DNA of 64,000 nt, taken from assembly GCF_003334405.1 (NCBI RefSeq), contig NZ_QOWM01000005.1; one strand, given 5' to 3'. Numbering within the stretch: the stretch's first letter is position 1; each line of letters begins with the position of its first letter. Below the pieces are notes generated by a model that saw nothing but the letters and a program-made list of their open reading frames with translations, searched no databases and was not told where the DNA came from. This document shows, piece after piece, positions 38,400 to 42,622 of the stretch. The position numbers and the translations under genes were made by a program. This DNA comes from Escherichia coli (GTDB lineage Bacteria > Pseudomonadota > Gammaproteobacteria > Enterobacterales > Enterobacteriaceae).

Positions 38400-39532
38400 T
38401 TATCAATAACGTTAAGCTGGTGCTGGAAAACGAGGTGGTAAGCGGTTCGCTGGAGGTGCAGAACGGCGAAATCCGCGCCTTTGCCGAAAGCCAGAGCCGC
38501 CTGCCGGAGGCGATGGACGGCGAAGGCGGCTGGCTGCTGCCGGGGCTGATTGAGCTGCATACCGATAATCTGGATAAATTCTTCACCCCGCGCCCGAAAG
38601 TTGACTGGCCTGCCCACTCGGCGATGAGCAGCCACGACGCGCTGATGGTGGCGAGCGGCATCACCACCGTACTGGATGCCGTGGCAATTGGCGACGTGCG
38701 CGACGGCGGCGATCGGCTGGAGAATCTGGAGAAGATGATCAACGCCATCGAAGAGACGCAGAAACGCGGCGTCAACCGCGCCGAGCACCGTCTGCATCTG
38801 CGCTGCGAACTGCCGCATCACACCACGCTGCCGCTGTTTGAAAAACTGGTGCAGCGCGAGCCGGTGACGCTGGTGTCGCTGATGGACCACTCGCCGGGCC
38901 AGCGCCAGTTCGCCAACCGCGAGAAGTATCGCGAATATTATCAGGGCAAATACTCCCTCACTGATGCGCAGATGCAGCAGTACGAAGAAGAGCAACTGGC
39001 GCTCGCCGCACGCTGGTCGCAGCCGAATCGCGAATCCATCGCCGCCCTGTGCCGCGCGCGAAAAATTGCGCTTGCCAGCCACGATGACGCCACCCACGCC
39101 CACGTTGCTGAATCTCACCAGCTTGGCAGCGTGATCGCCGAATTTCCCACCACGTTCGAAGCGGCGGAAGCCTCGCGCAAGCATGGCATGAACGTGCTGA
39201 TGGGCGCGCCGAATATTGTGCGCGGCGGCTCGCACTCCGGCAACGTGGCGGCCAGTGAACTGGCGCAGCTTGGCCTGCTGGATATCCTCTCTTCCGACTA
39301 CTACCCCGCCAGCCTGCTCGATGCGGCATTTCGCGTCGCCGATGACCAGAGCAACCGCTTTACGCTGCCGCAGGCGGTGAAGCTGGTGACTAAAAATCCA
39401 GCGCAGGCGCTTAATCTCCAGGATCGCGGGGTGATTGGCGAGGGCAAACGCGCCGACCTGGTGCTGGCGCATCGCAAGGACAATCATATTCATATCGACC
39501 ACGTCTGGCGTCAGGGTAAAAGGGTGTTCTGA
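38396..39532 (+). CDS. phnM: PhnM, amidohydrolase-family pyrophosphohydrolase of the C-P lyase pathway (378 aa)
   Basis: Amidohydrolase-type metal-binding motifs (ELHTDN); operon position. Confidence 0.93.
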
Positions 39533-40089
39533 TGATGGGAAAACTGATTTGGTTAATGGGGCCGTCCGGCTCCGGGAAAGACAGCCTGCTGGCGGAACTC
39601 CGCCTGCGGGAACAAACTCAGTTACTGGTGGCGCATCGCTACATCACGCGCGATGCCAGCGCCGGAAGTGAAAACCATATCGCCCTGAGCGAGCAGGAGT
39701 TTTTTACCCGCGCGGGGCAAAATCTGTTGGCCTTAAGCTGGCACGCTAACGGTCTGTATTATGGCGTCGGCGTCGAGATTGATCTCTGGCTGCACGCCGG
39801 ATTCGACGTGCTGGTCAACGGCTCACGCGCCCATCTGCCGCAGGCGCGGGCGCGCTATCAATCGGCGCTGCTGCCCGTCTGTTTACAGGTTTCGCCGGAG
39901 ATCCTCCGCCAGCGCCTGGAAAACCGTGGCCGTGAAAACGCCAGTGAAATTAACGCCCGCCTGGCGCGCGCCGCCCGCTATACTCCACAGGATTGCCATA
40001 CGCTCAACAATGACGGCAGCCTGCGCCAGTCGGTCGACACGCTGCTGACGCTGATCCATCAGAAGGAGAAACACCATGCCTGCTTGTGA
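39532..40089 (+). CDS. phnN: Ribose 1,5-bisphosphate phosphokinase PhnN (185 aa)
   Basis: P-loop GPSGSGKDS; start ATG shares one base with the phnM stop. Confidence 0.93.
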
Positions 40090-40510
40090 GCTTCGCCCGG
40101 CCACGCAGTACGACACCGACGCGGTTTACGCGCTGATTTGTGAGCTAAAACAGGCGGAGTTTGACCACCACGCGTTTCGCGTGGGTTTTAACGCCAATCT
40201 GCGCGACCCAAACATGCGCTACCATCTGGCGCTGCTTGATGGCGAAGTTGTCGGCATGATCGGCCTGCATTTGCAGTTTCATCTGCATCATGTCAACTGG
40301 ATCGGCGAAATTCAGGAGTTGGTGGTAATGCCGCAGGCGCGCGGTCTGAACGTCGGCAGTAAGTTACTGGCGTGGGCAGAAGAAGAAGCCCGCCAGGCCG
40401 GGGCCGAAATGACCGAACTTTCGACCAACGTGAAGCGCCACGACGCGCACCGTTTCTATCTGCGCGAAGGCTACGAGCAGAGCCACTTCCGCTTCACCAA
40501 GGCGCTGTAA
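40076..40510 (+). CDS. phnO: Aminoalkylphosphonate N-acetyltransferase PhnO (144 aa, GNAT)
   Basis: GNAT fold; overlaps the phnN end by 14 bp. Confidence 0.93.
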
Positions 40511-40511
40511 C

Positions 40512-41270
40512 ATGAGCCTGACCCTCACGCTCACCGGCACCGGCGGCGCACAGGGCGTTCCGGCATGGGGCTGCGAGTGTGCGGCCTGCGCCAGAGCGCG
40601 GCGCTCGCCGCAGTATCGCCGCCAACCGTGCAGCGGCGTAGTGAAGTTTAACGACGCAATCACCCTGATCGACGCCGGGCTGCACGATCTCGCCGATCGC
40701 TGGTCGCCCGGATCGTTCCAGCAGTTTTTGCTGACGCATTATCATATGGATCACGTCCAGGGGCTGTTTCCGCTGCGCTGGGGCGTTGGCGATCCGATCC
40801 CGGTTTACGGCCCGCCGGATGAACAGGGCTGCGACGATCTGTTTAAACATCCGGGCCTGCTTGATTTCAGCCACACGGTGGAACCGTTTGTGGTGTTTGA
40901 TTTGCAGGGGTTACAGGTCACGCCCCTGCCGCTCAACCACTCAAAACTGACCTTCGGTTATCTGCTGGAAACGGCACACAGCCGGGTGGCGTGGCTGTCT
41001 GACACCGCAGGCTTGCCGGAAAAAACGCTGAAATTTTTACGCAATAATCAGCCGCAGGTAATGGTGATGGATTGCAGTCACCCGCCGCGCGCGGATGCAC
41101 CGCGTAATCACTGTGATTTAAATACCGTGCTTGCGCTGAATCAGGTTATCCGCTCGCCACGGGTGATTCTGACCCATATCAGCCACCAGTTTGATGCGTG
41201 GCTGATGGAAAACGCACTACCGTCAGGGTTTGAGGTGGGGTTTGATGGGATGGAGATTGGGGTGGCGTGA
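40512..41270 (+). CDS. phnP: PhnP, metallo-beta-lactamase-fold cyclic phosphodiesterase (252 aa)
   Basis: HxHxDH motif (THYHMDH); last gene of the operon. Confidence 0.93.
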
Positions 41271-41292
41271 TGAGAGGGAATGTGCGCGCTGG

Positions 41293-41395
41293 CCCCCTCA
41301 CCCTAACCCTCTCCCCAGAGGGGCGAGGGGACCGATTGTGCTCGATATTGAATATTGCGCTCGTTTTCTCCCTCTCCCCATTGGGGTGAGGGGCG
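41293..41395. repeat. Two copies of a GC-rich palindromic repeat between convergent phnP and yjdP
   Basis: caccctaaccctctccccagaggggcgaggggacc (41293-41331) and ctccctctccccattggggtgaggggcga (41367-41395); same family as the element at 14077-14115. Confidence 0.65.
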
Positions 41396-41416
41396 ATGCC
41401 TGCTCCATACCCAACC

Positions 41417-41746
41417 TCATCGCCCATACTCATCTTCCATTCTCCGCTCTTCATCCTCCAGTTGCCGACGCTCCTGATCAAGCTGGCGCTGGCGATCGTC
41501 CAGCTGCCTGCGGCGATCTTCAAACTGGCGGCGGCGGTCGTCATATTGTCTGCGCCGATCGTCGCTCACTTCACGCTGCCAGCCGTCGTCGCGCGAATCT
41601 TCATAGTCTCGCCCACGGTCAGGGTTATAAGCGTCATTAATCGCCTGCTGAATATTGCCAATGGTGTCGTCGATAATATCGGCCTGGGCCGGAACGGTGG
41701 ACAGCGTGAGCAGGGTGAATAAAAGAAATAGCGGAAAGCGTTTCAT
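41417..41746 (-). CDS. yjdP: Secreted low-complexity protein YjdP (109 aa) with charged R/Q/D/E repeats
   Basis: Signal peptide MKRFPLFLLFTLLTLSTVPAQA followed by repeats of the form DDRRRQ(Y/F/L); function unknown. Confidence 0.8.
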   Translation of the reverse strand: MKRFPLFLLFTLLTLSTVPAQADIIDDTIGNIQQAINDAYNPDRGRDYEDSRDDGWQREVSDDRRRQYDDRRRQFEDRRRQLDDRQRQLDQERRQLEDEERRMEDEYGR

Positions 41747-41814
41747 TAGCCAACCTCAAAAAGAAACTCTATCCACATTAATCATTACTCATCCATGCAA
41801 GTAGTGGATGAATC

Positions 41815-42264
41815 TCAATTTCTCCGCTGCTCTATTGCCGTAATCGCCTCCACGCGTTGTTGATGACGACCGCCTTCGTACTGTGCGCCCAGCCACGCAT
41901 CCACAATCATTTTTGCCAGTTCGAGGCCAACCACTCGTGAACCAAAAGCCAGCACGTTGGTGTCGTTATGCTGCCGCGAAAGTTGCGCGGAATAAGGTTC
42001 GCTACAGACGACCGCGCGAATTCCGGCAAACTTGTTCGCCGCTATCGAAATACCGACGCCAGTACCACAAATCAAAATCCCGCCATCAACCTCTCCGCCA
42101 GCAACAGCCAGTGCGACTTGACTGGCGTAATGTGGATAATCAGTACGCTCTGACGACCAGGTTCCTTTATCAATCACTTCAACGCCACGCTCAACTAAAT
42201 GTGCCACTATTTCATGTTTTAAAATGAAACCGACATGATCACAGCCAAATGCAATCTTTTTCAT
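41815..42264 (-). CDS. rpiB: Ribose-5-phosphate / allose-6-phosphate isomerase B (149 aa)
   Basis: Translation MKKIAFGCDHVGFILKHEIVAHLVERGVEVIDKG... (RpiB/LacAB family). Confidence 0.95.
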   Translation of the reverse strand: MKKIAFGCDHVGFILKHEIVAHLVERGVEVIDKGTWSSERTDYPHYASQVALAVAGGEVDGGILICGTGVGISIAANKFAGIRAVVCSEPYSAQLSRQHNDTNVLAFGSRVVGLELAKMIVDAWLGAQYEGGRHQQRVEAITAIEQRRN

Positions 42265-42622
42265 TCATCTTCCCCGTCCGTGCAAAACTTCACAATCAAA
42301 AAACATTTGTGATGTTAATGAATTAAAAACACCCAAAATCGATGAATTACGCCTTCCTGATCTGTTTTACAGAGTTACATCTGACAGCGCAATAGCGTTA
42401 AAGACACTCACCATCCAGCAACATCTATCATCTAAAAAACCAGAAAAACAAATAACATCATGTTTTTAAACTAATTAAATGAAATAAAATTTTAAGCCAC
42501 TCGCCATTGTTCACAATAAAATAAACTTTATAAATTTTATTTTTTTGTGAAGTCGCCAGCATCTTTTCTGTTCTTGCTGTGGTGATATAGTGGCGTCTTC
42601 AATTCAAGGACAAGAGAACGTG

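Follow-up and report, generated by a model that had tools for sequence, protein, structure and literature searches.

The yjdP gene and its family

The subject of this analysis is yjdP, a small gene on the minus strand of a 64,000-nucleotide stretch of Escherichia coli DNA (contig NZ_QOWM01000005.1; hereafter, the window), which starts with ATG and encodes a product of 109 amino acids. The open reading frame (ORF) reported in the original prediction, an annotation made from the sequence alone, is confirmed, with a translation identical to the protein quoted there. That yjdP is a real, conserved gene for a helical heptad-repeat protein, predicted to be exported, and that it possesses a conserved promoter of its own that is of the activator type, is well supported by the observations presented below. 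The features of the locus are collected in Table 1.

Table 1. Features of the yjdP locus, with positions in the window and the basis of each assignment
Feature	Position	Strand	Basis
yjdP coding sequence	41417..41746	-	ORF list and sequence; 109 codons, stop at 41417-41419
Predicted Sec signal peptide, residues 1-22 (MKRFPLFLLFTLLTLSTVPAQA)	41681..41746	-	n, h and c regions in the sequence; predicted cleavage before D23
Acidic amphipathic helix, residues 23-40 (DIIDDTIGNIQQAINDAY)	41627..41680	-	conservation and hydrophobic spacing; helix predicted
Variable acidic linker, residues 41-61 (NPDRGRDYEDSRDDGWQREVS)	41564..41626	-	length and sequence variation; AlphaFold2
Six phased heptads, residues 62-103	41438..41563	-	lag-7 periodicity; 21-nt tandem repeat; AlphaFold2; salt-bridge statistics
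Acidic C-terminal tail EDEYGR, residues 104-109	41420..41437	-	sequence
Shine-Dalgarno GAGG	41754..41757	-	sequence; 7 nt before the yjdP ATG
Inferred transcription start (~41768)	41766..41770	-	from the position of the -10 hexamer, by analogy with rprA
Predicted -10 hexamer TAATGT	41775..41780	-	TAnnnT offset conserved across loci
RcsB-box-like site TGAGATTCATCCAC (candidate)	41804..41817	-	8/9 specified consensus positions; conserved in 69/69 loci

The window is 100% identical to E. coli K-12 strains, in which the ORF is annotated as 'yjdP: DDRRRQL repeat protein YjdP', and RefSeq carries the name yjdP for it in almost every one of the 5,426 complete E. coli genomes. The protein scores 147.9 bits against the NCBIfam equivalog model NF041443, 'DDRRRQL repeat protein YjdP' (curated cutoff, 90 bits), with residues 1-103 matching positions 1-101 of the 101 in the model, and PF28054 is the precomputed Pfam annotation of YjdP and all its close homologues. 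The window protein is the K-12 founding sequence of this family: it covers the full model well above the cutoff, contains all three family blocks (the signal peptide, the DIIDDxIGNIQQAINDAY helix and the DDRRRQL-type heptads) and aligns with 69 species-level orthologues, to which the family statistics below refer. No other family reaches its curated cutoff in the NCBIfam search, a Pfam-A search (E<=0.001) yielded zero hits of any kind, searches of Pfam-A, PHROGs and PDB sequences produced only weak matches to coiled-coil or low-complexity proteins, and an Rfam scan of positions 41000-42600 found nothing. Thus, the gene and its repeat are already catalogued, and the observation of the repeat, taken alone, adds nothing new. 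The family has a name but comes without a function, a structure or a mode of regulation in the literature and databases searched; the full-text literature search encountered yjdP in several contexts and found no study devoted to it, in agreement with the earlier description of the gene as uncharacterised. In the literature that could be searched, no precedent was found for the regulatory assignment or the structural description proposed here.

Could a frame of such skewed composition be no gene at all? Charged repeats often leave several frames open, and in K-12, the antisense frame is indeed open for 101-108 codons, so a low-complexity frame might have been kept open by the repeat composition, or the real gene might be the antisense ORF of 108 amino acids. 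The amino acid sequence, however, is conserved across genera while synonymous sites are saturated: the ratio of nonsynonymous to synonymous substitution rates (dN/dS) is 0.05-0.07 in comparisons with Citrobacter and E. fergusonii, that is, yjdP is under strong purifying selection. Furthermore, the start codon, the Shine-Dalgarno sequence, the signal peptide and the stop codon are conserved in 69 species; the motif GAG(G/A)CTGG is kept in the 5' untranslated region (UTR) of most orthologues; the transcript is detected and regulated; and curated NCBIfam and Pfam families exist. The antisense frame, in contrast, contains 2-3 stops per species, with the longest open stretch reaching 101 codons in K-12, 87 in Citrobacter and 80 in E. 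fergusonii. The non-gene reading is effectively refuted, and its probability is negligible. There are two antisense ORFs, of 108 amino acids at 41396-41722 and of 136 amino acids at 41230-41640 (both on the plus strand), which are kept open by the codon composition of the repeat; both were rejected as genes, the frames being interrupted in Citrobacter and E. fergusonii.

A conserved upstream element and the case for RcsB

Upstream of the coding sequence, the locus has a conserved element. A box of the form T-N-(G/A)-G-A-N4-T-C-(C/T) starts 63-74 nt before the ATG in 69 of the 69 loci with an identifiable ORF, which represent ~25 genera of Enterobacteriaceae and yield the consensus ATTTGAGATTCCTCCGCTAC, with the core TGAGAwTynTCC at ~72 nt from the ATG. 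The 14 nt of the box carry 1.71 bits of information per column, as opposed to 0.30 over the 25 nt preceding it and 0.36 over the spacer that follows, and in 62 of the 69 loci the distance from the box start to a TAnnnT hexamer is exactly 37 nt, with 38 nt in 5 more. When compared to the RcsB consensus TN(G/A)GAN4TC(T/C)NA, which was derived from crystal structures and electrophoretic mobility shift assays (EMSA) (PMC7913699), the yjdP box matches at eight of the nine specified positions in K-12 as well as in all 69 loci.

The closest parallel is the promoter of rprA, whose RcsB site, the one used in the RcsB structures, spans -53 to -33. In strain MG1655, the rprA box TGAGACGAATCTGA is followed, 37 nt after its start, by the -10 hexamer TACTAT, and the annotated RNA begins 7 nt after that hexamer. 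If the geometry at yjdP is rprA-like, transcription would start near 41768, some 22 nt ahead of the ATG, and the centre of the box would fall near -43. The promoters of the rprA type and that of yjdP then have in common the (G/A)GA-N4-TC(T/C) pseudo-palindrome, the ATTGAGA left arm, the distance of 37 nt from the box start to the -10 hexamer, a weak -35 element and, on the presumed yjdP start, a box centre near -43. They differ in the last consensus base, which is C rather than A in yjdP, and in the right arm, where yjdP has TCC(G/A)C in place of TCTGA; moreover, unlike in sites of the rprA type, conservation in yjdP runs on into GCTAC, beyond the RcsB contacts.

The context of the box is informative as well. 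In K-12, the stop codon of rpiB (TGA, 41815-41817) coincides with the first three bases of the box, and rpiB ends 68 nt from the yjdP ATG. The box, however, is retained although the upstream gene differs between loci, including those where this gene is divergent or unrelated, so read-through from rpiB cannot be the general mechanism of yjdP expression. A scan with the sigma-70 consensus detected no promoter between rpiB and yjdP, which leaves room for rpiB read-through in K-12; such a failed match is expected of an activator-dependent promoter.

Published expression data come from inhibition of LolCDE in strain BW25113 delta-acrB, where yjdP was up 9.5-fold and 10.6-fold within 30 min, its tabulated expression value rising from 10.6 to 100-112 (PMC5105897). 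At the top of the list of induced genes stand osmB, bdm, wca/wza, ivy, mliC, rcsA and yjbEFGH; Cpx genes (cpxP, spy, degP) and genes of the sigma-S regulon are on it as well, and the authors attributed the response to Rcs, Cpx and sigma-S (PMC5105897). These data show that yjdP is expressed and responsive to envelope stress, and they fit Rcs control. The lack of detectable expression, which the original prediction had offered as grounds for its own refutation, is contradicted by published RNA sequencing in which the yjdP transcript is both detected and regulated; the expression test proposed there, phosphate starvation, points the wrong way, given that the promoter element is RcsB-like and that the published response is to envelope stress.

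Several observations count against RcsB. The last position of the box is C, not the consensus A, in all loci. The RcsB pattern occurs twice in the window where 5.2 matches are expected by chance, so that in a single sequence the match is not significant. The strict pattern finds no site in the Rcs-dependent bdm promoter, and osmC shows only a site with one mismatch, with TAGTCT at +37, although this control carries little information. The failed sigma-70 scan belongs here too, and the induction of yjdP by the LolCDE inhibitor is not Rcs-specific. The evidence for the RcsB box is its conservation and geometry, and not the pattern match alone. The read-out of DNA by RcsB, moreover, has been described as weak and promiscuous (PMC7913699), so sequence alone cannot assign the factor.

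All this leaves some space for a different explanation, namely, that the upstream box is not an RcsB site and that yjdP is controlled by another protein of the FixJ/NarL type, by sigma-S or by Cpx, or, in K-12, by read-through from rpiB, with the induction by the LolCDE inhibitor being indirect. Besides the misfit at the last box position, the mixture of Rcs, Cpx and sigma-S regulons in the inhibitor response and the rpiB end within the box, this explanation can invoke the finding that overexpression of CsiR lowers yjdP expression 3.5-fold (0.28-fold), with a peak inside the gene in chromatin immunoprecipitation sequencing (PMC5217608, Table 1). What speaks against it is that the half-site type, the 4-bp spacing, the ATTGAGA arm and the distance to the -10 hexamer all coincide with those of the RcsB-bound rprA site and that the motif is kept next to divergent or unrelated upstream genes. 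Furthermore, inspection by eye of the K-12 intergenic region and of the 69-locus consensus, in place of a formal scan, revealed no CpxR repeat (GTAAA N5 GTAAA), sigma-E promoter or Pho box. All homologues found belong to Enterobacteriaceae, which carry Rcs, a distribution that is compatible with Rcs although it does not single it out. A search of the accessible literature, with supplementary tables of an rcsB-mutant O157 study and of iModulon papers where available, yielded no delta-rcsB, chromatin immunoprecipitation or EMSA data on yjdP. On balance, we consider it probable that RcsB is the activator of the yjdP promoter and regard control by a different regulator as rather unlikely.

Two further features that turned up around the promoter and the gene were discarded. 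A hairpin in the 5' UTR that would sequester the Shine-Dalgarno sequence is suggested by single-sequence folds, but RNAalifold on 30 UTRs gave no consensus pair; and the only 'terminators' that the scan detected are located within the repeat, on the wrong strand, and are artefacts.

Predicted signal peptide, N-terminal helix and linker

The N-terminus of YjdP has the layout of a Sec signal peptide, with MKR as the n-region and FPLFLLFTLLTL as the h-region, followed by STVPAQA and, across the predicted cleavage site, D. The assignment was made by reading the sequence, with 10-15 residues taken as the norm for the hydrophobic h-region, and by examining conservation among the orthologues: the n-region is positive, the h-region hydrophobic, and the residues at -3 and -1 are small. 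The A-x-A motif followed by D or N is kept in 69 of 69 orthologues while the h-region sequence drifts, and the signal peptide is 22 residues long in 53 of them; it evolves faster than the rest of the protein, with a dN/dS of 0.27-0.38 as opposed to ~0.06. At the AxA cleavage site, none of the 69 orthologues has an L-x-x-C lipobox, and K-12 YjdP has no cysteine. We infer that YjdP is exported by Sec and cleaved by signal peptidase I, which bears out, at the level of sequence, the earlier claim of a secreted protein with a signal peptide. As a separate observation, E. coli GN04133 (NZ_CP147561.1; L078:1508-1864) has a yjdP of 118 amino acids in which a 9-nt Leu-Phe-Thr unit is expanded within the h-region of the signal peptide (LFTLFTLFTLFTLFT), a second, independent tandem-repeat polymorphism in this gene.

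The mature protein would consist of 87 residues (11.0 kDa; isoelectric point, 4.6; grand average of hydropathy (GRAVY), -2.28), with a net charge that averages -8 across orthologues. It opens with the block DIIDDxIGNIQQAINDAY, which is the most conserved in the family. The hydrophobic residues of this segment, I25, I29, I32, I36 and A39, follow a 3-4 spacing, and the predicted helix has a hydrophobic moment of 0.52 and a net charge that averages -3.5. AlphaFold2, run on YjdP with a 25-sequence alignment, predicts this helix at low confidence, with a predicted local distance difference test score (pLDDT) of 56-65, which is a point against the interpretation proposed below. The linker that follows is 12-31 residues long, differs in sequence between genera and carries a mean charge of -3; in the AlphaFold2 model, residues 41-52 are coil with low pLDDT, and residues 53-61 open the long helix discussed next.

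The heptad repeat: a charged single helix or a coiled coil?

The C-terminal half of YjdP is made of heptads, which in K-12 are DDRRRQY, DDRRRQF, EDRRRQL, DDRQRQL, DQERRQL and EDEERRM, with the consensus [D/E][D/E]R[R/Q]R[Q/R][L/Y/F/M] in the orthologue set. Residue identity amounts to 57% at lag 7, 45% at lag 14 and 42% at lag 21, compared to ~17% in shuffled sequences, with 0 of 2000 shuffles reaching the observed values; at the DNA level, Tandem Repeats Finder reports a period of 21 nt with 3.5 copies at 41491-41563. Across the family, position 5 is Arg in 377 of 411 units, position 7 is hydrophobic in all of them, and, of the 69 species, 64 carry precisely six heptads. Constraint within the gene is strongest in the repeat region, with a dN of 0.06-0.10. 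Thus, the DDRRRQ-type repeats noticed in the original prediction are real, far above chance, and have given the official family its name; the phrase 'low-complexity array' undersells a strictly phased heptad under strong purifying selection. The C-terminal tail is rich in Glu and Asp and ends in an aromatic residue in most orthologues.

Within Escherichia, the length of the repeat region shifts by whole heptads among the common alleles (102, 109 and 123 amino acids). The 102-amino-acid allele, with five heptads, is found on at least 1000 contigs, and independent alleles of this length lack different heptad units, whereas a single E. albertii YjdP of 123 amino acids contains eight.

In the AlphaFold2 model, residues 53-108 (~56 residues) form one continuous helix, with a pLDDT of 90-97 over residues 61-100, and the protein has no compact fold, the predicted template modelling score (pTM) of the monomer being 0.37. 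The helix contains 36 opposite-charge pairs at i/i+3-4 where 21.8 are expected and only 4 like-charge pairs where 21.2 are expected, and neither count was reached in 5000 shuffles (P<1/5000). On the helical wheel, the Arg at position 5 is opposite the Leu seam and is bracketed by acidic positions 1 and 2 both of its own heptad and of the following one, which implies a continuous salt-bridge ladder. These results fit the original prediction of a long single alpha-helix or coiled coil, insofar as the model can tell, and raise the question which of the two it is.

The heptads could indeed be a true coiled coil, with mature YjdP forming a homo-oligomeric rod in the periplasm (a di-, tri- or tetramer) that would serve as a structural element or spacer in the manner of Braun's lipoprotein. 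Three features agree with this model: the heptads keep strict phase and are always hydrophobic at one position, indels in the repeat region are confined to whole heptads, and the N-terminal helix shows a canonical a/d hydrophobic pattern. So does the charge gradient along the rod agree with it, from ~+1 in the first half to ~-3 in the second, which would favour antiparallel pairing. However, a canonical coiled coil has two hydrophobic core positions, and here position 7 alone is of this kind: positions 3 and 4, with Arg or Gln, flank the Leu seam, and the residues 3 and 4 away from the hydrophobic one, which would complete the core, are Arg, Gln, Glu or Asp, so that parallel layers would stack like charges. 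An AlphaFold2 model of a mature-linker-mature fusion has a slightly higher pTM (0.44) than the monomer, which is a point in favour of self-association, but the helices become less confident (pLDDT of 74-88), and there is neither confident packing nor docking of the N-terminal helix. Foldseek with this tandem-fusion model found no meaningful structural match, and the search of PDB sequences found no related solved structure and no solved coiled coil below E=0.04. Finally, the copy number of five or six in the common E. coli alleles, and of eight in one E. albertii protein, indicates that a fixed rod length is not required.

Braun's lipoprotein, Lpp, is a short periplasmic heptad-repeat helix of ~56 residues and ~80 Å, and the YjdP helix is of similar length. 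Lpp has a lipobox and a full a/d hydrophobic core and forms a trimer, whereas YjdP has a signal-peptidase-I site of the AxA type, no Cys and one hydrophobic position per heptad.

The alternative comparison is with the single alpha-helix (SAH) domains of the ER/K type, which occur, for example, in myosins. YjdP shares with them dense opposite charges at i/i+3-4, few like-charge pairs and an extended helix devoid of tertiary contacts. The differences are that SAH domains employ Glu and Lys where YjdP employs Asp and Arg, and that an SAH domain is a spacer inside a large eukaryotic protein, whereas YjdP is a stand-alone bacterial protein predicted to be periplasmic. Moreover, YjdP retains a seam, with Leu, Tyr, Phe or Met at each seventh residue. 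A hydrophobic residue every seven positions is atypical of textbook single alpha-helices, and this weighs against a pure SAH.

Taken together, the charge-pair statistics, the charged would-be core positions and the lack of confident packing in the tandem fusion lead us to favour an extended helix stabilised by salt bridges, with one seam that might bind a partner, over a classical homo-oligomeric coiled coil, which we regard as possible but doubtful. The rigid single-helix state itself is deduced from modelling and charge patterns.

A possible role in the envelope stress response

How could these findings be combined? With somewhat more confidence than doubt, we propose that yjdP encodes a Sec-exported periplasmic effector of the envelope stress response that is controlled by RcsB. 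Under this hypothesis, yjdP would be transcribed from its own activator-dependent promoter, which phosphorylated RcsB would drive upon envelope damage; the Sec pathway would export YjdP to the periplasm, and removal of the 22-residue signal peptide would leave a soluble mature protein. Binding would be the task of the invariant acidic amphipathic helix (DIIDDxIGNIQQAINDAY), which the variable, acidic, disordered tether joins to the rod, a soluble, rigid handle of ~80 Å in which the heptad [D/E][D/E]R[R/Q]R[Q/R]L occurs six times. The rod would be kept helical by salt bridges that pair Asp/Glu with Arg at i/i+3-4 around the Arg of heptad position 5, and the Leu/aromatic seam flanked by Arg and Gln would be free for a partner or for weak self-association. 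A difficulty for this scheme is that AlphaFold2 shows neither docking nor confident self-association of YjdP. On this hypothesis, YjdP would fall into an established category, that of small Rcs-regulon proteins of the envelope stress response.

The obvious functional analogy, and no more than an analogy, is with Spy, CpxP and ZraP, which are likewise Sec-exported, ~10-15 kDa in size, all-helical and highly charged; Spy and CpxP are, furthermore, induced in the same LolCDE-inhibitor experiment as yjdP. There is, however, no sequence or profile similarity between YjdP and these proteins (no Pfam hit at E<=0.001 and no PDB match), no LTXXQ motif was seen in the YjdP sequence, and their fold is a cradle of helical hairpins, whereas the YjdP model is a single extended helix, net acidic. 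Hydrophilins and the proteins similar to those of the late embryogenesis abundant (LEA) group, defined by Gly above 6% together with very high hydrophilicity, provide another point of reference; here, YjdP is short on Gly (4 of 87 residues, 4.6%) despite its mature GRAVY value.

It is conceivable, although tentative, that YjdP serves as a periplasmic binder or holdase-like protector made under stress, or else acts as a modulator, as other small helical envelope-stress proteins do, and that it is neither an enzyme nor related to phosphonate use. Even more speculative, and in our estimate improbable, is the idea that YjdP could be the first stand-alone periplasmic charged single alpha-helix, Rcs-induced, the head of which binds IgaA or RcsF in a feedback similar to that of CpxP on CpxA, or else that the number of heptads in the ~80 Å rod tunes a periplasmic distance.

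In practical terms, an orphan y-gene that is conserved across Enterobacteriaceae now has a testable assignment, which combines a promoter similar to the best-characterised RcsB-activated one with a response to a block of lipoprotein trafficking. If the assignment is true, the Rcs regulon would acquire a conserved periplasmic effector of an uncommon make, in which an acidic amphipathic head sits on a rod held by Asp-Arg salt bridges; Rcs is important in antibiotic tolerance, virulence and the production of capsule. YjdP might also offer a naturally occurring bacterial protein on which to study how charge patterns stabilise helices. Its applied value is modest: the promoter is a candidate reporter of envelope damage, and the protein, small and well defined, would suit biophysical work.

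Distribution and genomic neighbourhood

An exhaustive, profile-free search of 1.84 billion representative proteins produced 53 hits, of which the convincing ones all have the YjdP architecture; named members come from Escherichia, Shigella, Citrobacter, Klebsiella, Cronobacter, Buttiauxella and Entomohabitans. Some distant hits outside Enterobacteriaceae (P0168-P0171, E ~1e-4) look compositional and were not counted as members of the family. A scan of one genome per species yielded at least 65 loci, all in Enterobacteriaceae and from ~25 genera, among them Enterobacter, Kosakonia, Kluyvera, Raoultella, Leclercia, Lelliottia, Atlantibacter, Yokenella, Trabulsiella, Phytobacter, Pluralibacter, Cedecea and Franconibacter. 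Salmonella and non-Enterobacteriaceae genera are absent among the matches listed in this species scan.

In the window, yjdP is convergent with phnP (40512-41270, plus strand), in line with the earlier note on the phn operon, and phnP is convergently located downstream of yjdP in 62 of 74 related loci across ~25 genera, with a median gap of ~70 nt and, in some cases, overlapping 3' ends. This persistent arrangement invites the suggestion that YjdP is tied to phosphonate or phosphate metabolism, be it as an Arg-rich periplasmic binder of phosphonates or as a convergent unit that modulates the 3' end of phn. Apart from the position next to phnP, often within tens of nucleotides, the suggestion can draw on the response to LolCDE inhibition, in which phnP rises 2.9x, phnO 2.2x, phnN 1.8x and phnD 1.4x (PMC5105897). 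This gradient (phnN-phnP, 39532-41270) decays away from yjdP and might represent antisense read-through from yjdP across the repeat spacer; it is small, and although the library was directional, the counting mode, and hence its strand-awareness, is not stated. Against a phn link, the genes are convergent and not transcribed together, the element conserved in the promoter is RcsB-like, and no Pho box is evident by eye in the 69-locus consensus. Furthermore, yjdP persists where phn is missing or reduced to remnants, namely, in E. fergusonii, Cronobacter, a Klebsiella metagenome-assembled genome and Entomohabitans, and plain ancestral synteny would produce a conserved adjacency on one side with a variable island on the other. 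A phn link, for which the conserved position and the small gradient, itself perhaps read-through, are the support, is in our view quite improbable, and we maintain control by RcsB as the preferred interpretation.

On the opposite side, the neighbourhood is variable: rpiB is located upstream of yjdP in only 13 of 74 loci, and the other upstream neighbours include a hybrid histidine kinase, an HSP90-like protein, a nitroreductase and a divergent transporter. The gene appears as the conserved edge of a variable island junction, occupied by als/rpiB in K-12, and in enterohaemorrhagic E. coli, yjdP marks the border of the OI167 island (PMC10128022). In many other genera, too, an unrelated upstream gene ends at the box or within a few bases of it, which suggests that island replacements repeatedly broke just upstream of the yjdP promoter.

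The yjdP-phnP spacer is occupied, at 41294-41393, by a 13-nt inverted arm and a palindromic, GC-rich element that occurs twice (CCCTCTCCCCAGAGGGGCGAGGGG and CCCTCTCCCCATTGGGGTGAGGGG). A genome-wide survey lists a hairpin/G-quadruplex element between yjdP and phnP (PMC5100583), which is most likely the same palindromes, and the element is probably a bidirectional terminator or insulator. E. coli GN04133 lacks the GC-rich spacer, and its phnP-yjdP gap is 27 nt.

Finally, in E. fergusonii (L003:3484-4330), the DNA identity of yjdP to its K-12 counterpart is 74.5%. A divergence specific to yjdP was considered and rejected, given that the adjacent rpiB is equally divergent (75.5%), so that the effect is regional. 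Identity of ~75% is far below the usual similarity between E. coli and E. fergusonii, and the als-rpiB-yjdP segment in E. fergusonii seems to have had a separate history.

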